Assembly: GCA_001790445.1 (NCBI GenBank)
Contig: MGCQ01000008.1
Location: 26,676-90,675, forward strand
From: Candidatus Saccharibacteria bacterium RIFCSPHIGHO2_12_FULL_41_12
GTDB lineage: Bacteria; Patescibacteriota; Saccharimonadia; Saccharimonadales; 2-12-FULL-41-12
Reading direction: 5' to 3'
Length of the DNA stretch: 64,000 nucleotides
In this document: one piece after another, positions 1-57,608 of the stretch
How positions within the stretch are numbered: position 1 is the first letter of the stretch
Layout: every line of letters starts with the position of its first letter
Translations under genes and position numbers: made by a program
Notes under the pieces: generated by a model
Told to the model about the DNA's origin: nothing
Databases searched by the model: none
The model's input: the letters and a program-made list of their open reading frames with translations, nothing else

Positions 1-280
1 TGAAGCTATCTGGCACCCCAGGTGGGATTGTTTTTAGGCCGAGACTGTAACCTACAATAAGAGGTCTGCCGTTCTGTCCATCTCCACCATAGTTCATTGT
101 AATGTCTTTGGGTTCAACTATTTGCTCCGTAAGGCCAGGGTTTAGATTAAACGCATCTTCCGCCTCGCCTATGAGCTTTGCTGCGGTATGTTCTAGCTGT
201 TGGCTTGATAAGTGTAAATCATTATGCCAATCACGGGGGATAGGGGCATTAGGGGGTAAAGAAAAAAAGCGAGTTTCCAT
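1..280 (-). CDS. hypothetical protein, N-terminal ~93 codons only (gene runs off left edge)
   Basis: Open minus-strand frame from ATG at 278-280 (METRFFSLPPNAPIPRDWHNDLHL...) with no stop before position 1. It is absent from the ORF track because it has no stop in the window. It lies 50 nt downstream of, and co-directional with, the 952-aa membrane protein gene. Confidence 0.4.
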   Translation of the reverse strand, partial: METRFFSLPPNAPIPRDWHNDLHLSSQQLEHTAAKLIGEAEDAFNLNPGLTEQIVEPKDITMNYGGDGQNGRPLIVGYSLGLKTIPPGVPDSF

Positions 281-330: not shown

Positions 331-3189
331 TTATGTTCCTGGTGGGCCAGCTTCACCGCGACCAGCAGCAGCCGCTTCTTCTCTTGCCCTACTGCCATAT
401 TCTCGGCGAATTTGACCAAAGTCTGGATCAGTTCTTAGTGCTTCAAAAACTTCAGAATAGTTCATCTGACCATCGGCAGGTGCTACACCGCCAAAACCTT
501 CGATCATTCGGTCTCTTATATGAGGCGGAAGAGTGCGTATGTCGACTTGGGTGTTGTTCATCATATCTGCTAGATCGCGAGCAATTTTAGGGTTTGCGTA
601 GCCTGCAGCATCTAGCTTACCTGCCAGAGTAGCAAACTCTTGGATAGCTCTTCTGCCGGCACCTTCACTGTTATCGCCCAGCACCCTAACCATATTCCTT
701 TGCATGGAAGGTAACATATTCCTTCTAAATGCTGTTTCTTTCATATTAAGCATACTCCCACCCATAGAGTCGGCAGTGTGATCATAATGATCGGCTGTGG
801 CCTGTTCGGCAGTTAAAGCTCCTGTGTGAGAAGCTTCAAGATTGGTTATATCATCTGTAAAGCTACCTACTTGATCCGCACGGTCGGTTTGACCTAGGTT
901 TTTACGGAATTCTCCAAGTAGGCGTGCCGCATGACCACGATTGTTGCCTGCAAGCTGATTAATAAGTGCATATTTGTTGTCGTGATCACCAGTTTCGGAA
1001 TAATCTAGCCCTGTGCCACTAGTTGATAGACCTAGGCCTGCAGCATTATCGAATACTTCCTTGCCAGCTTCTTGCTTAGCTCGCCATACTTCCATAGCCG
1101 CAGTATCTAGCCCTTGTTGACGTTCTGCAGAATAAGTGCCATCTGCATTATCTGCGCCAAATCTAGCGTGAGATCTATTGACTAGCTCTCTACGAATTTC
1201 CTCAAAATTATCTCCCCTAATACCAGCCCAAAGTTTGTCATCGTCGTTACTGAATGCAGCAAAAGTATGGCTATTTTTCATATAGTCCATAGCTGTGTCC
1301 ACAACGTGTGTTCCCTCTCTTGATCCACTTGCGGCGTTGTATCCTGTACGCATTGCTGCCAAGTTATTTCTAAACCCACGCACACCTCTCCTCCCTTCTC
1401 TGGCGCCACCCAATCCTGAGCCAATAGCTCCTGCAGAAAGCCCTGCGGTGTCAAGGTTCTCTTTTGCAGAGTGAGCAGCATTACCAATAATGTTACCTCT
1501 TGTATTTCGAAGTTCCCCAAATTTTTTGTTAGTCCTTTTGCTGAGACCACTAGTAAAGTTGCTTGCCATGTTCCCGACTGAACCTATCATGCCCCCAGCT
1601 AATTTGAAGGAAAAAGGGATTAAAAACATAGGGGTAAACACAGCCACAACACCTATCAGAAGAGAAATTATCCCTACAGAGTCATTGGTTTTTGTACTGT
1701 TGGTGATGAAAATAACTGACATTATGTTGGCCAGAGCAAATATAACCGCAATAATTGGGTAAACCATAAGCGTCTTTAAGAATTGGGTCCACCAAACTTT
1801 AAAATACTTCTCGGTACCAGGGAGTATAAAGCAAGCGATAGCTATCGGAGAGATAATAGTCAACAGCACCACTAACGCAAATCTGACAACCAAGGTGAAT
1901 AGGACTGCTAAGGCAGCAAAAGAGACAATTATGAGAATTGGTATTAACACATAAAGACCAAGCAAGGTAAGAGCTCCCCCTACTGCCCCAGCTGACACGA
2001 TAGCCGTTATTGCGCCAGCTGCTAGACCTCCTCCAAGAGTTCCCACAATGGCAGATTCTGTGTTGCCTTCGGTTTGCGCATCATATGCTCCAGCAACGAT
2101 AAAAGGTTTCGTTAATAGGTAATTCATGCCGTTGCCTATCACATTGGTTATATCAATGGCTGCCACACACAAATATATAGAGATATTTATTGCAATAATG
2201 CCGATCAATATCCTTGGCGCCATTTTTTTGGCCGTATACGCATCTACAGCATTTATACCCCAGCCTTCTGTTAGCTGTGAAAGCACAAGAATCAGTAGAA
2301 CTCCTATCAAGAGGATGTTTGCTATCAGTCTGAAACTTTGCCAAACTTTATAAAAGTCGTTATTACTGTCTATACCAACAGGTGTCCCTTGTAAGAGGGG
2401 GGTGACTAGGTACTGAAAAACCCCGTCAGTTATCTTTGCGCCCATTTCCATAACTGGGCAGAGTATCCATGACAAGGGATTAGCGAACGATGCATCGCAT
2501 GATGGTTCTTGTTTGCTTCCATCTTCCCCTGGGTCTGAGCTACTTGATGCCACAGAAGGGTCACCTATCGGTTTGTCAGATTCAGCGGGTTTTCCATCTG
2601 CCCCAATCTTAATAAGTTTTAAGCTCGCAACGGAGGCCAATCTGTTTTTGCAATCTTGCATTGACCCAGCTATGGGCTTCCAGTATTTGGTCCCGTTATC
2701 TTTAAAGTCTGTAAACATATTTTTATTACAGCCAAGAGCTTCATATAGATGATCTTGGTTGTCTTCGCATTTGTCGTTCCAGAGGTCAGTGTCGTTTTTT
2801 ACTTTCTTACATTTTTCCTCTATGAGCTGAATTTGTGCAGCCGCTCTGTTATAACACTCTTTGAATTCGCCTTGTTTGGTGTACCATTTTTTATCTCCAT
2901 CATCAGCTTCATGTTGGTAAAACATTTTTCCTGAACAGCCGAGTTCTCTATCAAGTCTTTCCTCCCATTCAGAACATCCTTCTGTACCATTCTGGTTAGT
3001 AGTGAATATGTAGCCAATATTGTTTAAATCATGGCAGTTTTTACCAACTAGGTATAAACGGTTATTGCCATATTTAGCGTCAGCTGCCAGCGCTGGTTTT
3101 GGGCTGACTATTAAGGTAGAAACAAGACTAAACATAGTGAGGAATATGTAAAACGCACCCAAAACAAAGTATTTACTGGAAGAAACCAT
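331..3189 (-). CDS. large polytopic membrane protein, VirB6/TrbL-like candidate (952 aa)
   Basis: ORF track. Signal-like N-terminus (FYIFLTMFSLVSTLIVSPKPALA). A ~250-aa Cys-rich ectodomain carries an internal repeat (LGCSGKMF..KKWY..C.NR versus LGCNKNMF..TKYW..CKNR). About 8 hydrophobic helices span aa ~290-545 (nt ~1557-2322), followed by a ~400-aa hydrophilic tail with no motif I recognise. The gene is divergent from the pilin-like array. Confidence 0.5.
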   Translation of the reverse strand: MVSSSKYFVLGAFYIFLTMFSLVSTLIVSPKPALAADAKYGNNRLYLVGKNCHDLNNIGYIFTTNQNGTEGCSEWEERLDRELGCSGKMFYQHEADDGDKKWYTKQGEFKECYNRAAAQIQLIEEKCKKVKNDTDLWNDKCEDNQDHLYEALGCNKNMFTDFKDNGTKYWKPIAGSMQDCKNRLASVASLKLIKIGADGKPAESDKPIGDPSVASSSSDPGEDGSKQEPSCDASFANPLSWILCPVMEMGAKITDGVFQYLVTPLLQGTPVGIDSNNDFYKVWQSFRLIANILLIGVLLILVLSQLTEGWGINAVDAYTAKKMAPRILIGIIAINISIYLCVAAIDITNVIGNGMNYLLTKPFIVAGAYDAQTEGNTESAIVGTLGGGLAAGAITAIVSAGAVGGALTLLGLYVLIPILIIVSFAALAVLFTLVVRFALVVLLTIISPIAIACFILPGTEKYFKVWWTQFLKTLMVYPIIAVIFALANIMSVIFITNSTKTNDSVGIISLLIGVVAVFTPMFLIPFSFKLAGGMIGSVGNMASNFTSGLSKRTNKKFGELRNTRGNIIGNAAHSAKENLDTAGLSAGAIGSGLGGAREGRRGVRGFRNNLAAMRTGYNAASGSREGTHVVDTAMDYMKNSHTFAAFSNDDDKLWAGIRGDNFEEIRRELVNRSHARFGADNADGTYSAERQQGLDTAAMEVWRAKQEAGKEVFDNAAGLGLSTSGTGLDYSETGDHDNKYALINQLAGNNRGHAARLLGEFRKNLGQTDRADQVGSFTDDITNLEASHTGALTAEQATADHYDHTADSMGGSMLNMKETAFRRNMLPSMQRNMVRVLGDNSEGAGRRAIQEFATLAGKLDAAGYANPKIARDLADMMNNTQVDIRTLPPHIRDRMIEGFGGVAPADGQMNYSEVFEALRTDPDFGQIRREYGSRAREEAAAAGRGEAGPPGT

Positions 3190-5585: not shown

Positions 5586-5999
5586 ATGAGAAAATTTATT
5601 AGACAAATAGTTACCACATTAGCACTGGCTACTGTCATGTTAACACCAGCACTAGCGACAACTTCAGTATTTGCGGCTGACATAGACAAGAGCCTTTGCA
5701 AAGGGGCTGAACTGAAGCTTAGTGGAGAAGGAGATTGCTCAACGACTGAAGCAGCAGGAACAGGTTTAGACAAATTGATAACAGATGTTGTTAACATATT
5801 TTCCGTAATTGTCGGCGTAGTAGCCGTAATAATGATCATCTACGGTGGTTTCCGCTATATCACTTCAGGTGGGGACTCTGGTAACGTTACTACTGCAAAA
5901 AACACTATTCTCTACGCTCTTGTCGGGCTTGTCATAGTTGCCTTGGCGCAGTTTATCGTAAAGTTTGTACTGAGCAAGGCCACTGGGCTCGGCGACTAA
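5586..5999 (+). CDS. VirB2/TrbC-topology pilin-like protein, paralogue 6 (137 aa)
   Basis: AAGGA ribosome-binding site. Signal peptide ending VFAADI, a 2-Cys loop (LCKGAELKLSGEGDC), and the C-terminal hairpin NIFSVIVGVVAVIMIIYGGFRYITSGGDSGNVTTAKNTILYALVGLVIVALAQFIVKFV. Confidence 0.6.
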   Translation: MRKFIRQIVTTLALATVMLTPALATTSVFAADIDKSLCKGAELKLSGEGDCSTTEAAGTGLDKLITDVVNIFSVIVGVVAVIMIIYGGFRYITSGGDSGNVTTAKNTILYALVGLVIVALAQFIVKFVLSKATGLGD

Positions 6000-6010
6000 G
6001 GTTTGCAAAG

Positions 6011-6445
6011 ATGAAAACTAAAATATTTTCGTTCGTATTTGGGCTGAGCCTTCTCGTCTCGTTTGCAGGTGCCATGAATACCAGTACTGTTCTAGCAGAT
6101 TCTAAAAGTGAACTTTGCAGTGGCGCAAACTTTGATATAAGTGGTGGTAGCGATGCAGGTTGTGATGGTAAATCTGCCTGTGAAGACGACCCATCTAAAG
6201 CAAATTGTCCGGCAGGCAAGCTAAATACCCTGATCAACAATATAGTTAACATTTTATCTGTAATTGTCGGTGTTGCTGCCGTAATTATGATCATTTATGG
6301 CGGGTTTAGGTACGTTACTTCTGGGGGCGACTCTGGCAATTTGACTACAGCGAAAAACACCATACTCTACGCTCTCGTCGGGCTTGTTGTGGTTGCCTTG
6401 GCGCAGGTGATCGTTAAGTTTGTGATTAACAAAGCCAGTTTTTGA
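6011..6445 (+). CDS. VirB2/TrbC-topology pilin-like protein, paralogue 7 (144 aa, 4 Cys)
   Basis: AAGG ribosome-binding site, a signal peptide and a 4-Cys ectodomain. The C-terminal hairpin is nearly identical in protein sequence to paralogues 6 and 8. Confidence 0.6.
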   Translation: MKTKIFSFVFGLSLLVSFAGAMNTSTVLADSKSELCSGANFDISGGSDAGCDGKSACEDDPSKANCPAGKLNTLINNIVNILSVIVGVAAVIMIIYGGFRYVTSGGDSGNLTTAKNTILYALVGLVVVALAQVIVKFVINKASF

Positions 6446-6489
6446 AGCCGAGACTTTGAAGTCTCTCTCAGTCTATGGTATAAATTAGT

Positions 6490-6906
6490 ATGATGAGACT
6501 TTTGATGTACTCACTGGCTAGCGTGTCCCTGTTTTTGGCTTTTTTCTCACCAGTATTTCTATCCTCAAGCGTTTACGCAGCAGATATCTCGAATAATCTT
6601 TGTAAAGGAGCGGACTTGCGGTTTAGTGGCAATGCAAACTGTGCCGATACCACTAAAGATTCCAGCGCCAAGCTAGACAAGCTGGTAACCGACATAGTCA
6701 ATATATTTTCTGTCATTGTCGGTGTAGTCGCAGTGATCATGATTATTTATGGCGGATTTCGCTACATTATTTCTGGTGGAGACTCTAGCAATGTCACCAA
6801 TGCGAAAAACACCATACTCTACGCTCTCGTCGGGTTAGTCGTAGTCGCTTTGGCGCAGTTTATCGTAAAGTTCGTACTGAGCAAGGCCACTGGGCTTGGG
6901 GTTTAA
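6490..6906 (+). CDS. VirB2/TrbC-topology pilin-like protein, paralogue 8 (138 aa)
   Basis: Signal peptide ending VYAADI and a 2-Cys loop (LCKGADLRFSGNANC). The last ~50 nt of coding DNA differ from paralogue 6 at only one position. It is preceded by a small hairpin (gagactttgaagtctc) and a TGgTATAAA extended -10-like box. Confidence 0.6.
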   Translation: MMRLLMYSLASVSLFLAFFSPVFLSSSVYAADISNNLCKGADLRFSGNANCADTTKDSSAKLDKLVTDIVNIFSVIVGVVAVIMIIYGGFRYIISGGDSSNVTNAKNTILYALVGLVVVALAQFIVKFVLSKATGLGV

Positions 6907-7069
6907 CTCGACTTACGCAAATCTCCACACTCTCAAACTCTCCAGATGAGTCCAGAACCCCTTTTTCTGATGTCACCACACCTACCAGGTGTGCTTCCAC
7001 CAGAGAAAAGAACTTCTAAATCTCCTCTGGAAGATTCTGGAGAATGCGGAGATTTGCGTAAGTCGAGTT
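6905..7069. repeat. 165-bp long-hairpin repeat, copy 1 (MITE-like or structured RNA)
   Basis: The termini aactcgacttacgcaaatctcc and ggagatttgcgtaagtcgagtt are reverse complements, and the interior also pairs (tctccaga/tctggaga, ctttttctg/cagagaaaag, apex cacacct-acc-aggtgtg). The element is ~96% identical to 49158-49322 and begins inside the stop codon of pilin paralogue 8. Confidence 0.85.
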
Positions 7070-21032: not shown

Positions 21033-21062
21033 TTGACAGGAGTATATTCAAAAGTGTATACT
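21033..21062 (+). promoter_or_regulatory. promoter of the first DinJ/YafQ-type TA operon, with internal dyad
   Basis: TTGACA (21033-21038), 18 nt, then TATACT (21057-21062). The spacer holds the inverted repeat agtata...tatact. The ATG at 21069 is only 6 nt after the -10 box. Confidence 0.55.
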
Positions 21063-21068
21063 TTTGGT

Positions 21069-21353
21069 ATGAGTGATTATGCCATAATAAATTTAAAGAC
21101 TGACCCCAAGCTTAAAGCCCAGGCAGCCAAAACTGCCAACAAACTAGGGATTAGCATCAGTGCGGTTCTGAACAATGAGCTAAGGCGTTTTGCCACAGAA
21201 CAAAGTGTGGTTTTTGACTTACCTGAGTCTCCCAACCCACTTACCGAGGAGTTGCTTAAATCTTCAAAGAAACAGATTGATCAAGGCGATTATCACAAGT
21301 TTAACACCAACAAACAAGCTATCGACTTCCTGACCAAAGAGTTAAATGGATAG
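21069..21353 (+). CDS. RelB/DinJ-family antitoxin
   Basis: MSDYAIINLKTDPKLKAQAAKTANKLGISISAVLNNELRRFA (ribbon-helix-helix DinJ pattern), directly upstream of a YafQ-like toxin. The track start at 21033 coincides with the -35 box. Confidence 0.75.
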   Translation: MSDYAIINLKTDPKLKAQAAKTANKLGISISAVLNNELRRFATEQSVVFDLPESPNPLTEELLKSSKKQIDQGDYHKFNTNKQAIDFLTKELNG

Positions 21354-21367
21354 ATTTTTGCCTGCAA

Positions 21368-21625
21368 ATGACAATATCTTACACAAAAAACTTCATCAAA
21401 CAATCAAAAAAGCTCGACTCTAAACAACGAGCTAAGCTGATATCTCGGATCGAGCTTTATTCTGATAAGCCTGTTAGTCCCCTGCTTCGTGACCATGCTC
21501 TTAAGGGCAAATACAAGAATTACCGTAGTATAGATATTTCGGGTGACATGCGCGCGTTGTATCTGTTGAGTAAGAACGAAGCGATATTTGATATCGTCGG
21601 AACGCACAGCCAACTCTACGGCTAA
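21368..21625 (+). CDS. YafQ/RelE-family mRNA interferase toxin
   Basis: LRDHALKGKYKNYRSIDISGDMRALY...IVGTHSQLYG is the typical YafQ signature. Confidence 0.8.
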   Translation: MTISYTKNFIKQSKKLDSKQRAKLISRIELYSDKPVSPLLRDHALKGKYKNYRSIDISGDMRALYLLSKNEAIFDIVGTHSQLYG

Positions 21626-22291: not shown

Positions 22292-22542
22292 TATACTAAG
22301 TTAAGTAATTACCTTGTTACTACGTGGAAATAGGTAATTGAGCGTACAACAATACAGACCTTTGAGCGCTCGCTTGCAAAAGCTTATATCGGCATACCCT
22401 TATGATAGTTTTTGGTTTTGTTTTGTTTGCGCACAAGGTAGCTACCTAGTTTGCATTTTTCCGGACGTTTTTGTTTCAATTTTAGTATAATCCCAAAACC
22501 ATAAGCAATGCAACACTATTATTTTACATAACAAATAAACAC

Positions 22543-23046
22543 TTGCGCTAAAGCCTCCAAGGAGGCTTTTATCACCTTACTTTTTCTCACTAGCAAGAAA
22601 AAGTAAGCAAAAAGTGCCACCCCGGTGATCAAAAACTGCCCTAAGATTAAATAACTACAAACATACTATTCTTCCGGGACTCCTTCCAGTCGGGGACAAG
22701 CCCTGGTCCTCAGAATAATCTGTCTGTAGCCATTTAATCTAAAGGTGTTTTGACCAAGGGGACATTAAGCGGTCTAAAGTCATAATTAATAATATTTCCT
22801 ACGGAAATATACAAGGGAAGCTTGGGTCAGGCCTTGAGCAGACCTGAGAGATTTCGTCGAGATTACAACTATCAGACGAGGACTGTTTGAATGACCAAAG
22901 GGAGAGAGTTCCGCAGTCTGTTGTAATCTTCGACAAGAAATCACTTCAAGTCTGTTCAACCGCCTGCTACTTCTTTGCATACTTTCTTGTTAGCACAAGA
23001 AAGTATGGTGTATCAGGCCCTATTGGGCCGACGCAATGCATTTTTT
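22543..23046 (+). repeat. ~510-bp structured intergenic repeat, copy A (full length)
   Basis: Shares end modules and long internal blocks with 29667-30176 and 57033-57550, and its 3' half matches the reverse complement of 41217-41465. Modules: outer ttgcg...cgcaa, terminator-like GC hairpins, 12-bp sub-terminal hairpins, and apical hairpin atatttcc-tac-ggaaatat at 22791-22809. Confidence 0.9.
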
Positions 23047-23070
23047 GTATCTGTGAGAAGACAGACAGTT

Positions 23071-24129
23071 TCACATCTGTAAGGATGGCTCGATTTGTAG
23101 CGATTTATAGTCAACTAACTTCTTATTTTTCATATAAATTTGTGATCCCTGGGAGGCGATCATTGCTCCATTGTCAGTCGATAATTTTGGATCTGTTGAA
23201 TGCACTTTAGCCCCAAACAGTTCCTTTGCTCGTGTGCGCAAATATTGATTAGCAGATACTCCACCAGTGATAACGATGTTTTTGGACGCAAATTCTTGTT
23301 CTGCCTTGATTAGTTTTTCTAACAAGGTTTCTATTGCGGTGTATTCAAAACTAGCGGCAATATCGGCTTTTTGTTGATCTGATAGATGTTGGGCAATCTT
23401 TAAACTAGGGAAGGTGTAGTCTTTACCAATAACCTGTTGAGACAGACGAAGAACAGCTGTTTTCAGTCCAGAAAAGCTAAAATCGTAGGGGTTTTCTAGG
23501 CGGGATTTTGGTAGTTGATAGGTTTTTTGATCACCCTGCTTTGCTAACTTTGAAATACTTGGCCCACCAGGATATGGCAACCCCAAAATCTTCGCAACTT
23601 TATCAAATGCCTCACCCACTGCGTCGTCACGAGTCTTGCCCAAAACTTCGTATTTGGTAGGGGACAGATAATACACTATTTGACTGTGCCCACCACTGAC
23701 AATTAGGCAAAGGGCAGGGAACTCAAGTGGGGCTTTGGGTAGGTGATAGTTAAGTGATGTTTTAGTCAAAAAATTAACGGCCATGTGGGCCTGAACATGG
23801 TCAACTGGTATAAGCGGTTTGTCGTAAATTTGACCAAGTGTTTTGGCAGTCATAACCCCGACTAGCAGGCTCCCACCAAGCCCTGGACCATAAGTTACTG
23901 CGACAGCATCAATATTTGTCCACGTGCACCCTGCCTGCTTCATGGACTCAGCCAGAACTGGGATTATATATTCTATCTGTGCACGCGCTGCTACCTCTGG
24001 GACAATGCCTCCATACTGAGCTTGCAGATCCATAGAAGAAGCCACAACGTTGGACAGTAGTTCGCAGCCATCTTTTACTATTGCTACAGCTGTTTCATCG
24101 CAACTTGTCTCTATCCCTAAAATTAACAT
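23071..24129 (-). CDS. tsaD: tRNA N6-adenosine threonylcarbamoyltransferase
   Basis: MLILGIETSCDETAVAIV N-terminus plus Kae1/TsaD family length and motifs (GGVSAN, HMxxH-type region VDHVQAHM). Confidence 0.9.
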   Translation of the reverse strand: MLILGIETSCDETAVAIVKDGCELLSNVVASSMDLQAQYGGIVPEVAARAQIEYIIPVLAESMKQAGCTWTNIDAVAVTYGPGLGGSLLVGVMTAKTLGQIYDKPLIPVDHVQAHMAVNFLTKTSLNYHLPKAPLEFPALCLIVSGGHSQIVYYLSPTKYEVLGKTRDDAVGEAFDKVAKILGLPYPGGPSISKLAKQGDQKTYQLPKSRLENPYDFSFSGLKTAVLRLSQQVIGKDYTFPSLKIAQHLSDQQKADIAASFEYTAIETLLEKLIKAEQEFASKNIVITGGVSANQYLRTRAKELFGAKVHSTDPKLSTDNGAMIASQGSQIYMKNKKLVDYKSLQIEPSLQM

Positions 24130-29624: not shown

Positions 29625-29666
29625 GTTCTTTTCCAAAGAATTTAACATCTTAAAACCCAAACAACA

Positions 29667-30176
29667 TTGCGATTGCGCTAAAGCCTCCAAGGAGGCTTTT
29701 ATCACCTTACTTTTTCTCTCTAGCAAGAAAAAGTAAGCAAAAAGTGCTACCCCAGTGATCAAAACAAACCCTGAACCTACAAGACAACAGACAAGACTAT
29801 TCTTCCGGGACTCCTTTTAGTCGCCCCGCCTGAAGGCGGGGTAGTCCTCAGAATAATCTGTCTGTAGCTTTGTAGTTCCAAGGTGTTTTGACCAGGGGGA
29901 TATTAAACAGTCTAAAGTCATAATTAATAATATTTTCTATGAAAATATACAGATTGATAGTCAGGCCTTGAACAGACCTGAGAGACTACGTCAAGATCAC
30001 AACTATTAGACGAGGACTGTTTGACCCCGCCTAAAGGCGGGGGAGTTCCGCAGTCTGTTGTGACCCTTGACCGGTAGTCCCATCAAGTTTGTTCAATCGC
30101 CTGCTACTTCTTTGCATACTTTCTTGTTAGCACAAGAAAGTATGGTGATTAAAAGCCTGCAGGGCTTTAATCGCAA
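29667..30176 (+). repeat. ~510-bp structured intergenic repeat, copy B (full length)
   Basis: The outer closing pair cattgcga (29665-29672) / tcgcaatg (30171-30178). It has the same end modules as copy A and carries two ccccgcc-NNNN-ggcgggg hairpins (29824-29841, 30025-30043) at positions where copy A has other sequence. Confidence 0.9.
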
Positions 30177-30222
30177 TGAGTTATTTGCTGTTCGCAAGCT
30201 TTATCACAAGTGTTTATATTTT

Positions 30223-35672: not shown

Positions 35673-35718
35673 CAACAAACAAAGATTCAACATGATGAAA
35701 TATAATGCGTGAATTAAA

Positions 35719-35754
35719 ATATCATTTTCGCAACACGTGTATAATAAATGATAT
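35719..35754. promoter_or_regulatory. 36-bp palindromic motif, copy 1 (ATATCATTTT-N-AACACGTGT-N-AAATGATAT)
   Basis: atatcattttcgcaacacgtgtataataaatgatat. It has 9-10-bp outer arms plus an ACACGTGT core. The same 36-bp layout recurs at 36388-36423 and 41523-41558. Confidence 0.7.
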
Positions 35755-35785
35755 TAACAGATAAGCAGGTGGGGTAAATTAGCAA

Positions 35786-36322
35786 GTGAGTAAGAAAGCA
35801 GCGAATTTAATTGTGCAGATTATAGGTGGTGGGCTGGTGATATCAGCAGGGATGGTCGCTCCCAATGCCGTTGTTCCTCTGGCAAAGATCTTAATCAAAA
35901 GGCAGAAAAGTGCCAAAGAAACAGAGATTATCCAGGGGCTTAACTATGCCAAGAGACTAAAACTAGTCAAAATCCAGCAAAATGGTAGCCAGTTCACAGT
36001 GAAGCTCACCGAAAAAGGTCAAAAACGCCTGACAAAGATTAATCTCACTACCCCTTTAAAACAAGCCAAATGGGATGGGAAGTGGCGGATACTCTTATTT
36101 GATATCCCCAACAAAAAGACAGATGCGAGAAATGCTCTACGACTCACTATGCGGGAGCTGGGCATGCAGAAGCTTCAAGATAGTGCTTGGGTGACGCCTT
36201 GGGACTGTTCTGCTCAGTTCCTAGCAATGAAATACGTCTATGGTATCGAGCCGTACATAACTCTGATAGTTGCTGGTAGTATCGATGAAGAAGAGAAGTG
36301 GAAAAAACAATTCAAACTATAA
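35786..36322 (+). CDS. PaaX-like / Cas2-fold-like putative DNA-binding protein with N-terminal membrane segment
   Basis: GTG start. The block WDGKWRILLFDIPNKKTDARNALRLTMRELGMQKLQDSAWVTPWD matches the PaaX-family middle-domain pattern (W.G.W..v.fdIPe..R..R..lr..L...Gf..lq.svWv.P). Confidence 0.5.
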   Translation: MSKKAANLIVQIIGGGLVISAGMVAPNAVVPLAKILIKRQKSAKETEIIQGLNYAKRLKLVKIQQNGSQFTVKLTEKGQKRLTKINLTTPLKQAKWDGKWRILLFDIPNKKTDARNALRLTMRELGMQKLQDSAWVTPWDCSAQFLAMKYVYGIEPYITLIVAGSIDEEEKWKKQFKL

Positions 36323-36387
36323 GTGACTTGTGCTATAGCTAGCTTGTGAACCCAGCTTCTCCATCGGTAGTTGATCAATATATTTGA

Positions 36388-36423
36388 ATATCATTTTTGC
36401 AACACGTGTTTAGAAAATGATAT
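36388..36423. promoter_or_regulatory. 36-bp palindromic motif, copy 2
   Basis: atatcatttttgcaacacgtgtttagaaaatgatat. Confidence 0.7.
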
Positions 36424-36548
36424 TTTTATAACTGTAATTGGTGGCTGTATTTGCTAACTGTTATGGTTTAAAATAATCTAAATAAACTGTTGAGTAGGGG
36501 TTAACAGGGGGGAGGTTGGATTGTGTGAGGAATTTTACAGTAAAATAC

Positions 36549-41180: not shown

Positions 41181-41216
41181 GGTTTCTAACAGCTTACTTT
41201 TCTCAATAACACCTTT

Positions 41217-41465
41217 TTGCCATCCCGCAGTGGCGGGACTGATGCAACATACTTTCTTGTGTTGACAAGAAAGTATGCAAAGAAACAACAGGCGGTTGAA
41301 CAGACTTGATGGGATTTCTTGTCGAGTATTACAACAGACTGCGGAACTCTCTCCCTTTGGTCGTTCAAACAGTCCTCGTCTGATAGTTGTAATCTCGACG
41401 AAATCTCTCAGGTCTGCTCAAGGCCTGACCAACAATCTGTATATTCCCGTAAGCAATATAGATTT
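41217..41465 (-). repeat. ~510-bp repeat family, copy C: inverted, 3'-half only
   Basis: This is the reverse complement of the 3' half of copy A, from the sub-terminal hairpin catactttcttg...caagaaagtatg through ...ctcaggtctgctcaaggcctgacc to the apical region. The terminal GC hairpin is replaced by tcccgc-agtg-gcggga. The 5' half is absent. Confidence 0.85.
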
Positions 41466-41522
41466 GGGATCAGATGTTGAGCAGACCTAAAAGGATAATG
41501 TTTGAATTTTCAATATCATTTT

Positions 41523-41558
41523 CTGAACACGTGTATCGAAAATGATATTTGCAAAACT
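41523..41558. promoter_or_regulatory. 36-bp palindromic motif, copy 3
   Basis: atatcattttctgaacacgtgtatcgaaaatgatat. Confidence 0.7.
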
Positions 41559-49157: not shown

Positions 49158-49322
49158 TACTCGACTTACGCAAAATCTCCACACTCTCAAACTCTCCAGA
49201 TGAGCCTAGAACTCCTTTTTCTGATGTCACCACACCTACGGGTGTGCTTCCACCAGAGAAAAGAACTTCTAAATCTCCTCTGGAAGATTCTGGAGAATGC
49301 GGAGATTTGCGTAAGTCGAGTA
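49158..49322. repeat. 165-bp long-hairpin repeat, copy 2
   Basis: About 96% identical to 6905-7069. All differences fall in the 5' arm or apex (an extra a at gcaaaatc, gagcctagaactcc versus gagtccagaacccc, and ctacgggtg versus ctaccaggtg). The 3' arm is identical. Confidence 0.85.
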
Positions 49323-57018: not shown

Positions 57019-57032
57019 ACAACTTTAGCTTC

Positions 57033-57550
57033 TTGCGCTAAGCCCTTGGCAGGGCTTTTATCACCTTACTTTTTCTCTATAGCAAGAAAAAGTAAGCAAA
57101 AAGTGCCACCCCAGTGATCAAAACAAACCCTGAACCTACAAGACAACAGACAAGACTATTCTTGCGGGACTCCTTCCAGTCGGGTCTAAAGACCTAGTCC
57201 TCAGAATAATCTGTCTGTAGCTTTGTATCTCCAAGGTGTTTTAATCAAGGGGATAATAAGCAGTCTAAAGTATTTAACCACTGTGTTTTCCTCCAGAAAA
57301 CACAGATTATTATGATCTAACTGCTTTTGAACCAGGCCTTTGAATAACTGATGAAATATCTATTCAAGCAACGCCATGTTTTGAGGACTACCCCGCCTTC
57401 AGGCGGGGCGACCAAAGGGAGTCCCGGAAAAACTGGGTTGGTTGGATAGATATTTCAATCATGTTACTTCAATAGCCTGCTATTTCTTTGCATACTTTCT
57501 TGTTAGCACAAGAAAGTATGGTGATTGAAAGCCAAAGGCTTTAATCGCAA
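57033..57550 (+). repeat. ~510-bp structured intergenic repeat, copy D (full length, divergent 3' half)
   Basis: The left 220 nt are nearly identical to copy B. The central apical hairpin is replaced by ctgtgttttc-ctcca-gaaaacacag. The 3' arm is largely different but retains a ccccgcc-ttca-ggcgggg hairpin (57391-57408), the sub-terminal hairpin and the terminal aaagcc-aaa-ggcttt hairpin. Confidence 0.88.
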
Positions 57551-57608
57551 CGGGGTTACGAGCTTATTCATAATAAAGAGTTTATAAATAAAAGTGTATA
57601 ATTAGCCT

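Follow-up and report, generated by a model that had tools for sequence, protein, structure and literature searches.

A 64,000-nt stretch of the genome of Candidatus Saccharibacteria bacterium RIFCSPHIGHO2_12_FULL_41_12 (assembly GCA_001790445.1, contig MGCQ01000008.1, positions 26,676-90,675 of the forward strand), which we call the window, carries at four loci a non-coding repeat of about 510 bp. A first, sequence-only reading had described this repeat as a giant dyad-symmetric element, either a large structured RNA or a non-autonomous transposable element. Judged by alignment, the element is two diverged head-to-head copies of one unit of ~250-290 nt, and towards its outer end each unit has a hairpin module whose covariation points to a loop pseudoknot and a major-groove triple helix. 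The explanation we favour, to which we give somewhat better than an even chance, is that the units are stand-alone structured non-coding RNA (ncRNA) genes arranged as divergent doublets, with a triple-helix 3’ end and a mobile-element-like spread. The structural claims made below rest on covariation and thermodynamic prediction.

The repeat is a pair of inverted units

Three segments of the window, 22564-23010, 29694-30147 and 57053-57523, are linked as direct-repeat families with identities of 68-96%, and pairwise alignments recover copies A, B and C in full and copy D in part. An nhmmer profile of the unit, run over all 64 kb, finds exactly seven units with E values of 1e-62 to 1e-71 plus one stub of ~65 nt, and nothing else. 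The four loci that the sequence-only reading had listed are thereby confirmed at its coordinates. The left half of a doublet aligns with the right half only after reverse-complementing, and mean column identity is 61% in an alignment of the seven units, left and right together. Each doublet has its left unit on the minus and its right unit on the plus strand, so oriented that the 5’ ends are at the central hairpin and the 3’ ends face outward. The features are as follows, with copy A given in full.

22530-23070, unstranded: doublet A as an inserted segment of 541 bp, flanked by TTACAT (22524-22529) and TCACAT (23071-23076); empty site in two relatives (contigs L166 and L169)
22531-22819, minus strand: unit A-left, putative RNA gene (nhmmer E = 2.9e-62; homologous to right units when reverse-complemented)
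22781-23049, plus strand: unit A-right, putative RNA gene (nhmmer E = 4.2e-65; alignment)
22791-22809, unstranded: central palindromic hairpin common to the 5’ ends of both A units, read in the sequence
22828-22966, plus strand: long rod of A-right, closed by CAGGC...GCCUG, in the minimum-free-energy fold
22884-22890 (UGUUUGA) and 22906-22910 (GAGUU), plus strand: apical internal loop of the A-right rod, conserved, with a flanking helix that covaries across phyla
22965-23007, plus strand: 3’ module of A-right, with X’ UGCUA, third strand UUCUUUG and hairpin CAUACUUUCUUG-UUAGCA-CAAGAAAGUAUG; predicted pseudoknot and major-groove triple helix
22576-22620, minus strand: 3’ module of A-left, with X’ UGGCA, third strand CUUUUUG and hairpin CUUACUUUUUCU-UGCUAGUG-AGAAAAAGUAAG
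22550-22569, minus strand: GC hairpin 3’ of the triple-helix module of A-left, with compensatory changes between copies; not a consensus terminator
23018-23031, plus strand: GC hairpin 3’ of the triple-helix module of A-right, with another hairpin sequence at the same place in B, C and D; not a consensus terminator
29661-30188, unstranded: doublet B, left unit 29661-29960 (minus) and right unit 29919-30188 (plus), by nhmmer
29706-29744 (minus) and 30107-30144 (plus): predicted triple-helix modules of doublet B
57022-57560, unstranded: doublet C, left unit 57022-57311 (minus) and right unit 57275-57560 (plus), by nhmmer
57065-57103 (minus) and 57483-57520 (plus): predicted triple-helix modules of doublet C
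41209-41464, minus strand: single unit D, with its predicted triple-helix module at 41248-41285, by nhmmer
41429-41492, plus strand: stub of the head-to-head partner of D, of which the 5’ ~65 nt are left (nhmmer E = 9e-4, model positions 4-85)

The modules named in the sequence-only reading are all present (an outer TTGCG...CGCAA pair, a GC hairpin at each end, 12-bp sub-terminal hairpins, arms and the central hairpin), and no open reading frame is common to the copies, in agreement with its view that the element is non-coding. Two of its descriptions change once the units are recognized. The long complementary arms exist, but they are due to the inverted homology of the halves, and the minimum-free-energy fold consists of two separate rods rather than a giant dyad. 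Locus D, described before as a half copy, is not a fragment but a complete single minus-strand unit with the stub of a partner. The central hairpin has undergone a compensatory change in copy C, from ATATTTCC/GGAAATAT to GTGTTTTC/GAAAACAC. Contigs from other assemblies of the same organism stop at the element, as expected of a repeat.

The apex of C-right (UGAGGACUACCCCGCCUUCAGGCGGGGCGAC...GGAGUCCCGGAA, 57330-57420) resembles that of B-left (29760-29850), to which it is near-identical, and not those of the other right units. A left-type apex in a right unit suggests that units of the two types have exchanged sequence by recombination or gene conversion.

The 3’ module: a predicted pseudoknot and triple helix

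The 3’ module has the consensus (Y)nUUUG-CWUAC-(Y)n...(R)n-GUAWG, its hairpin reading G-CWUAC-(Y)n-loop-(R)n-GUAWG. Despite 24 distinct loops, the hairpin loop is complementary in nearly all loci to the 4-6 bases that come before UUCUUUG. The best helix between the two averages 4.34, compared with 3.27 +/- 0.14 when loops are permuted (maximum 3.71 in 2000 permutations). In a fixed-register alignment all six pseudoknot pairs change on both sides, and the covariation score of 0.166 exceeds all slid controls and is reached by none of 500 shuffles (0.066 +/- 0.011). The loops of the two sub-terminal hairpins do read TAGCA on the same DNA strand, as had been noticed before, but this is not a direct orientation of the hairpins, which belong to oppositely oriented homologous units. 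The loops read alike because the strands of the pseudoknot are swapped, UAGCA/UGCUA in left units and UGCUA/UAGCA in right units.

In parallel register, the pyrimidine tract on the 5’ side of the hairpin and the purine strand of its stem are mirror images. Examples of tract and stem are UUCUUU/AAGAAA, UUUUCUUU/AAAAGAAA, CUUCUUU/GAAGAAA, CUCUUU/GAGAAA and UUCUCUUU/AAGAGAAA; the left units of the window have CUUUUU with GAAAAA, and between A-left and the right unit the third-strand C and the stem G-C pair shift together. We scored 135 unique instances in parallel register, using only positions that were free of the search pattern. At 85% of these free positions the combination is an isomorphic one, with U facing A-U or C facing G-C; permutation gives 65% (maximum 70%). 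C faces 86 of 106 G-C pairs (81%), compared with 2-14% in registers shifted by 1-2 and with a mean of 45% and a maximum of 56% among permutations. Antiparallel Watson-Crick pairing of the tract was also considered and is excluded by asymmetric variants such as AAGAAA/UUCUUU and GAGAAA/CUCUUU.

The simplest reading of this pattern is a major-groove triple helix of 6-11 U.A-U and C+.G-C triples. We infer that the five invariant base pairs CWUAC/GUAWG at the base of the hairpin provide the offset needed to cross the groove. The length of the triplex varies freely, with 5 to 9 stem purines, and the lengths of third strand and stem are weakly correlated (rho = 0.19). One other interpretation of the conserved end, a start codon with Shine-Dalgarno sequence in AAGAAAGUAUG, was rejected: GUAAG stands there in the left units and in most metagenome members, and the ‘ORFs’ (open reading frames) downstream are not conserved.

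Rod, downstream hairpin and strand sense

The apex of the rod carries an asymmetric internal loop, 5’-UGUYUGA / 5’-GAGUU, around a variable hairpin, and this arrangement extends from Saccharibacteria to Proteobacteria and Bacteroidota. The helix flanking the loop averages 5.7 bp, compared with 2.3 +/- 0.24 bp when permuted, across 24 distinct arms. A kink-turn-like reading of the loop, with tandem G.A pairs, is possible but unproven.

A second hairpin begins within 5 nt of the triple-helix hairpin in 101 of 169 distinct tails, and among the window copies this GC hairpin varies in sequence while the hairpin is retained. The end hairpins had been proposed to act as intrinsic terminators for transcription entering from either flank, a proposal not supported by scans of the ends of A, B, C and D for consensus intrinsic terminators, where none is found. 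Across the family the hairpin is followed by a T-rich 4-mer in 5 of the 101 tails and by AA in 40. We regard it as belonging to the RNA fold rather than as an established terminator. An RNase P minihelix followed by RCCA was likewise tried and dropped, there being no enrichment (AACC in 6/101, GACC in 3/101).

The 504-nt stretch of copy A folds far better than dinucleotide shuffles on either strand (z = -8.7 for the plus and -9.7 for the minus strand). Among the three full copies, both partners have changed and pairing is retained at 27 of 167 predicted pairs. Of 148 units, 99 fold more stably as the sense than as the antisense strand (p = 2e-4). The difference is most marked for the three left units of the doublets in the window, whose sense and antisense energies are -66.3 vs -47.0 (A), -79.3 vs -67.5 and -66.5 vs -49.1 kcal/mol, and the sense fold of A-left includes 10 G.U pairs. 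G.U wobbles also occur in the pseudoknots of two other loci (L034 and L043) and of A-left and C-left in the window, an argument for RNA made from the strand given here.

Left and right units aligned with MAFFT proved structurally incoherent under RNAalifold, and covariation was assessed by anchored custom scripts instead of a family-wide covariance model. In these anchored tests the pseudoknot, the third strand and the rod helix all covary. The covariation speaks for a single strand that folds, most likely as RNA. The earlier idea of a structured ncRNA has some support from folding and covariation, but in the form of two opposite units of ~250-290 nt in place of a single ornate RNA of ~510 nt.

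Distribution and genomic context of the family

The right sub-terminal hairpin, with its loop left free, was used as an exact pattern to scan one genome per GTDB species and gave 42 loci. The carriers are Saccharibacteria and other Patescibacteria, Oscillospiraceae and Faecousia, Limnocylindria (Chloroflexota), Brevinematales, Neisseriaceae, Burkholderiales, an uncultured gammaproteobacterial metagenome-assembled genome (MAG) and two cultured Sphingobacterium species, Sphingobacterium nematocida DSM 24091 (NZ_FUZF01000016.1) and S. luzhongxinii (NZ_WEZW01000008.1); some MAGs have several copies. A degenerate form of the hairpin pattern matches at least 120 metagenome contigs. These database scans use exact patterns, which biases the apparent breadth of the family and its conserved core towards the patterns used. 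Single units without an inverted partner are the rule in other phyla. A second head-to-head doublet lies at 18-465 of a metagenome contig from an unrelated high-GC organism (L084, Ga0153933_1000402), with 3’ modules at 18-58 (minus) and 425-465 (plus), so the divergent-pair arrangement is not unique to this genome.

Scans of the window and 30 related loci with the covariance models of Rfam 15 at gathering thresholds yield nothing at the element, the only matches being tRNA, rRNA and T-box models and a single group II intron at other places; ROOL, GOLLD, OLE, HEARO, raiA, TwoAYGGAY, SAM-II, preQ1-II and the group I/II introns do not reach threshold. At E <= 10, copy A and one metagenome member give only noise, the best value being 0.17 for microRNA models. 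The sequence-only reading, which recognized no named Rfam family in the element, was right on this point. Literature searches with sequence strings and topic keywords produced no description of the RNA, the strings matching unrelated primers only; triple helices go unmentioned in the Weinberg 2017 motif paper, and in RNA triple-helix reviews of 2020 and 2026 the only bacterial examples are riboswitches and group II introns, whose triplexes are short. On the evidence of these searches the family is large, crosses phyla and is absent from Rfam 15.

Upstream of the motif there are usually 100-500 nt without coding sequence, and the motif often runs towards the 3’ end of a gene on the opposite strand, an arrangement that fits the end of a small RNA transcribed on its own. 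Within ~3-3.5 kb of about 160 loci there is no recurrent protein family. Among the genes of the 64-kb window there is no transposase, integrase, reverse transcriptase, TnpA, TnpB, IscB or Cas gene; the sequence-only reading had proposed a search of the genome for TnpA(Y1), TnpB and IscB genes.

Two other ideas were considered and rejected. An origin in phages, plasmids or E. coli is contradicted by the near-absence of the family from 2.9 million viral contigs (0 matches to the narrow pattern, 4 to the degenerate one) and by the lack of any blastn match in PLSDB plasmids or E. coli. A longer, insertion sequence-sized repeat around the units was set aside because in a multi-copy Oscillospiraceae MAG the repeats span only ~100-310 nt.

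The hairpin within rRNA operons

Six metagenome contigs with 23S rRNA and/or 5S rRNA and tRNA genes (L082, L094, L121, L125, L143 and L146) carry the triple-helix hairpin. Here it occurs without the loop pseudoknot and ends exactly at base 1 of tRNA-Lys in 6 of 6 contigs, and a second hairpin ends at base 1 of 5S rRNA in at least L125, L143 and L146. The layout is 23S - hairpin - tRNA-Lys - tRNA - hairpin - 5S. Since these hairpins are located inside rRNA operons, the motif exists within transcribed RNA. The arrangement of a predicted triple helix followed by a tRNA resembles that of MALAT1, in which the triple helix is followed by the tRNA-like mascRNA and RNase P makes the triple-helix-capped end (PMC7583470).

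Insertion of doublet A at the stop codon of tsaD

The two relatives represented by contigs L166 and L169, with TsaD proteins 77-78% identical to that of the window, keep the gene order murligase-tsaD-(hypothetical)-valS, and the triple-helix motif is absent from the 17-21 kb of their syntenic sequence. At the tsaD stop they have a single ATGTAA (...ATGTAA-ataatatgcttgcattgc) and no insert. The window instead reads ...ATGTGA-[541 bp, 22530-23070]-ATGTAA-aataatagtgttgcattgc, and the TCACAT of its flank holds the complement of the tsaD stop codon. The flanking 6-bp direct repeat, TTACAT/TCACAT, matches at 5 of 6 positions, and its left member contains TTAC. The empty sites in the relatives, taken with this repeat, show by comparison that doublet A was inserted as a whole pair at the tsaD stop codon and that tsaD was kept intact.

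The mobile side of the sequence-only reading has some support in this respect, although nothing positive was found for the IS200/IS605 (PATE) type of element that it had in mind. It had also held that an empty site combined with a lack of covariation would mark the element as a pure miniature inverted-repeat transposable element (MITE); the empty site is observed, and so is covariation.

In a more distant relative (L038, JAKOXV010000003.1; valyl-tRNA synthetase 53% identical) a single unit, located at 6045-6074, lies between a gene for a HAD hydrolase and valS, a place occupied in the window by a phosphoglucomutase gene. Related genomes thus carry their units at different positions.

A stand-alone RNA gene and the points against it

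If the units are stand-alone RNA genes, each would encode an ncRNA of ~250-290 nt, presumed to be transcribed from the central hairpin outward, with an architecture of four parts: a long rod, a 3’ hairpin with its third strand, the loop pseudoknot, and the GC hairpin downstream. By analogy with ENE and MALAT1, the triple helix would clamp the purine-rich 3’ strand and shield the 3’ end from 3’-to-5’ exonucleases. The rod with its conserved loops would be the working part of the molecule, probably a protein-binding platform that acts in trans. The genes would multiply within genomes in the manner of mobile elements, here as a whole doublet.

Several observations weigh against this explanation. 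Signals that would delimit a transcript are lacking: in addition to the missing terminators, no sigma-70-like promoter recurs at an equivalent position, the 1, 2, 0 and 2 sites in A, B, C and D being within the range of shuffled sequence. The right units of the window have a small energy gap between sense and antisense, and B-right favours antisense. The triple helix is deduced from covariation alone, its C+.G-C triples require protonation, and a pseudoknot whose loop and 3’ strand are joined without a linker leaves little steric room. The same pairs and triples could in principle arise in single-stranded DNA that folds. The end-protecting and protein-binding functions are put forward by analogy only. 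As for mobility, there is one clean empty site only and the repeat beside it is imperfect; site B is rearranged in the relatives and uninformative, and at site C, where PolA homologues are mostly contig-end fragments, no empty site was obtained.

Alternative explanations

The strongest of the alternatives, which we nevertheless think unlikely, is a mobile element that works as DNA only (MITE, REPIN or PATE-like). Its hairpins and arms would be recognized by a transposase encoded elsewhere, for example a Y1 enzyme of the IS200/IS605 type or a RAYT-type enzyme acting on single-stranded DNA, and any RNA would be incidental. The family shares with such elements a non-coding and dispersed character, inverted symmetry, and an insertion polymorphism with a short flanking repeat: doublet A is inserted relative to two relatives, assemblies break at the copies, several MAGs are multi-copy, and the inverted doublet resembles REPINs and has its counterpart in L084. 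Of the features of MITEs, inverted symmetry, lack of coding sequence and presence at four loci are seen, the 6-bp repeat (5/6) is found at one site only, and the element is assignable to no transposase family. PATEs have similar same-strand sub-terminal hairpins at both ends, recognized by a Y1 TnpA, and insert on the 3’ side of a constant tetra- or pentanucleotide with no duplication of the target. Here the two outermost hairpins differ in sequence between copies, and the single informative insertion site has TTAC in its left flank but also a 6-bp repeat. The arms are ~250-290 nt long, about 60% identical and homologous to units that occur singly in other phyla, and there is no transposase in the window or near about 160 loci. 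Pseudoknot, parallel third strand and rod loops are kept across phyla by compensatory change including G.U, which recognition of element ends by a transposase does not predict, and the same hairpin is found within rRNA operon transcripts.

Another candidate role is that of an orphan guide-RNA scaffold, similar to omega-RNA/HEARO, serving a TnpB, IscB or Cas12-type nuclease in trans. Pseudoknotted scaffolds are typical of the HEARO, omega-RNA (IscB) and TnpB group, and pseudoknot and triplex elements occur in Cas12 and TnpB guide scaffolds; like those RNAs, the family is structured, multi-copy and stand-alone, and they too can lack an adjacent open reading frame. We consider the role improbable, since neither the window nor the surroundings of about 160 loci hold a nuclease gene and since the Rfam models for HEARO and IS605-related RNAs find no match even at E <= 10. 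For the guide-RNA-like right end suggested in the sequence-only reading nothing positive was found, a conserved hairpin rather than a variable guide being located 3’ of the scaffold; nor is there a hypervariable single-stranded segment at the 5’ side.

Equally improbable is a cis-acting insulator, or bidirectional terminator cassette, that would block read-through between neighbouring genes. A and B do lie between convergent genes and have GC hairpins at both ends, and many members of the family converge on the 3’ end of a neighbouring gene. C and D, however, lie between co-directional genes, relatives have no element at the same site, and ~250 nt of conserved tertiary structure are unnecessary for termination; the ends, moreover, lack consensus terminators, and the scarcity of T-runs after the post-triplex hairpin (5/101) has been noted above.

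We give still less credit to a ligand-sensing RNA, in which the triplex pseudoknot would be an aptamer of the SAM-II/preQ1-II type at the end of a small RNA. The module has the H-type topology, a pyrimidine strand in the major groove and the invariant core UUUG-CWUAC...GUAWG, and with SAM-II, SAM-V, preQ1-II and telomerase RNA it would share a loop 1 lying in the major groove of stem 2 with U.A-U triples. It differs in not being upstream of genes, in a triplex that is longer and free in length (5 to 9 stem purines), and in the 150-nt rod; it is not part of a 5’ untranslated region and sequesters no Shine-Dalgarno sequence, its AUG-like end is GUAAG in many members, and the Rfam models for SAM-II, SAM-V and preQ1-II do not match. 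The idea of one ~500-nt ornate RNA across the whole element is scarcely credible, because for all the folding of the 504-nt stretch on either strand, its halves are inverted homologues of a unit found singly elsewhere, fold as two independent rods, and include a left half whose minus-strand fold is much the more stable of the two.

Other features of the window

The window is a housekeeping stretch that includes tsaD, a Mur ligase gene, groES/EL, valS, polA, dnaG and rpoD. Between doublet A and a gene for a 189-residue protein, at 22292-22523 on the minus strand, an intergenic stretch of ~230 nt shows in L166 and L169 a degree of conservation close to that of the flanking proteins. Opening with the promoter-like TTGCAT-N17-TATACT and including conserved hairpins, GGUAGCUACC among them, it is a candidate small RNA gene that no Rfam model matches. 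The insertion point of doublet A is ~10 nt upstream of its -35 box.

A palindrome of ~40-50 nt, ATATCATTTTC..ACACGTGT..GAAAATGATAT, is present in three copies at 35714-35764, 36383-36433 and 41508-41558, one of which abuts unit D. Plus-strand genes begin 22, 194 and 315 nt downstream of the copies; the nearest encodes a PaaX-like regulator (35786-36322), and the palindrome looks like an operator site.

A RelB/YafQ toxin-antitoxin pair, identified with Pfam at 21033-21625 between valS and the gene for the 189-residue protein, is absent at that place in the relatives L166-L169. At 5586-6906 there are three tandem paralogous small genes (137-144 residues) with a type IV secretion system pilin / TrbC-VirB2 domain, seen as a 233-nt repeat with ~455-nt spacing. 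A duplicate of ~150 nt, with 96-100% identity, lies at 6919-7068 and 49173-49321, 42 kb apart.

Relation to known RNAs and significance

The nearest known RNAs in working principle are the ENE, MALAT1 and MEN-beta triple helices, along with the H-type triplex pseudoknots of SAM-II, preQ1-II and telomerase RNA compared above. In the ENE type, as is predicted here, two pyrimidine-rich strands hold a purine-rich 3’-proximal strand by Watson-Crick and Hoogsteen pairing, in U.A-U triples with interspersed C+.G-C, and the structure stands at the 3’ end of an ncRNA; a Hoogsteen plus Watson-Crick clamp of the purine-rich 3’ strand is what the covariation of the family indicates, by covariation only. 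At some loci of the family a tRNA follows directly, and RNase P would there create the 3’ end. The differences are that the family is bacterial, that its core (UUUG-CWUAC/GUAWG) is invariant, and that its 5’ tail folds into its own hairpin and forms a loop pseudoknot, whereas ENE captures a poly(A) or A-rich tail in a U-rich internal loop. A stabilizing role in bacteria would be by analogy only. In its genomic behaviour the family is most like REPIN/MITE elements and the TwoAYGGAY RNAs (RF01731); the latter are multi-copy and stand-alone, often form divergent doublets a few hundred bp apart and are interpreted in a 2026 preprint as mobile-element-like (bioRxiv 10.64898/2026.09.22.753630). The likeness to TwoAYGGAY is in these stand-alone multi-copy genes, divergent doublets and mobile-element-like expansion; the family has another fold without AYGGAY loops, and RF01731 matches no copy.

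Long major-groove triple helices that protect RNA ends are found in viruses, vertebrate long non-coding RNAs, and plant and fungal transposons. We suggest tentatively, as something possible that we would not yet call probable, that the present family is the first bacterial counterpart to ENE/MALAT1: cross-phylum, stand-alone, self-multiplying ncRNAs whose 3’ end is sealed by a genomically encoded triple helix of 6-11 triples together with a pseudoknot, and whose hairpin is reused in rRNA operons. There, the cut made by RNase P or RNase M5 would produce an end capped by the triple helix. The covariation signal of the triple-helix module is unusually clean and spans many phyla, on an ornate RNA of ~150-290 nt that is multi-copy and apparently mobile, and the two cultured Sphingobacterium carriers make the family directly testable. 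If the suggestion is true, the family would be a new bacterial RNA class and would provide a natural covarying set of U.A-U and C+.G-C triples from which rules for triplexes could be drawn. It would also be a test case for the spread of structured RNA genes in reduced genomes such as those of Saccharibacteria.

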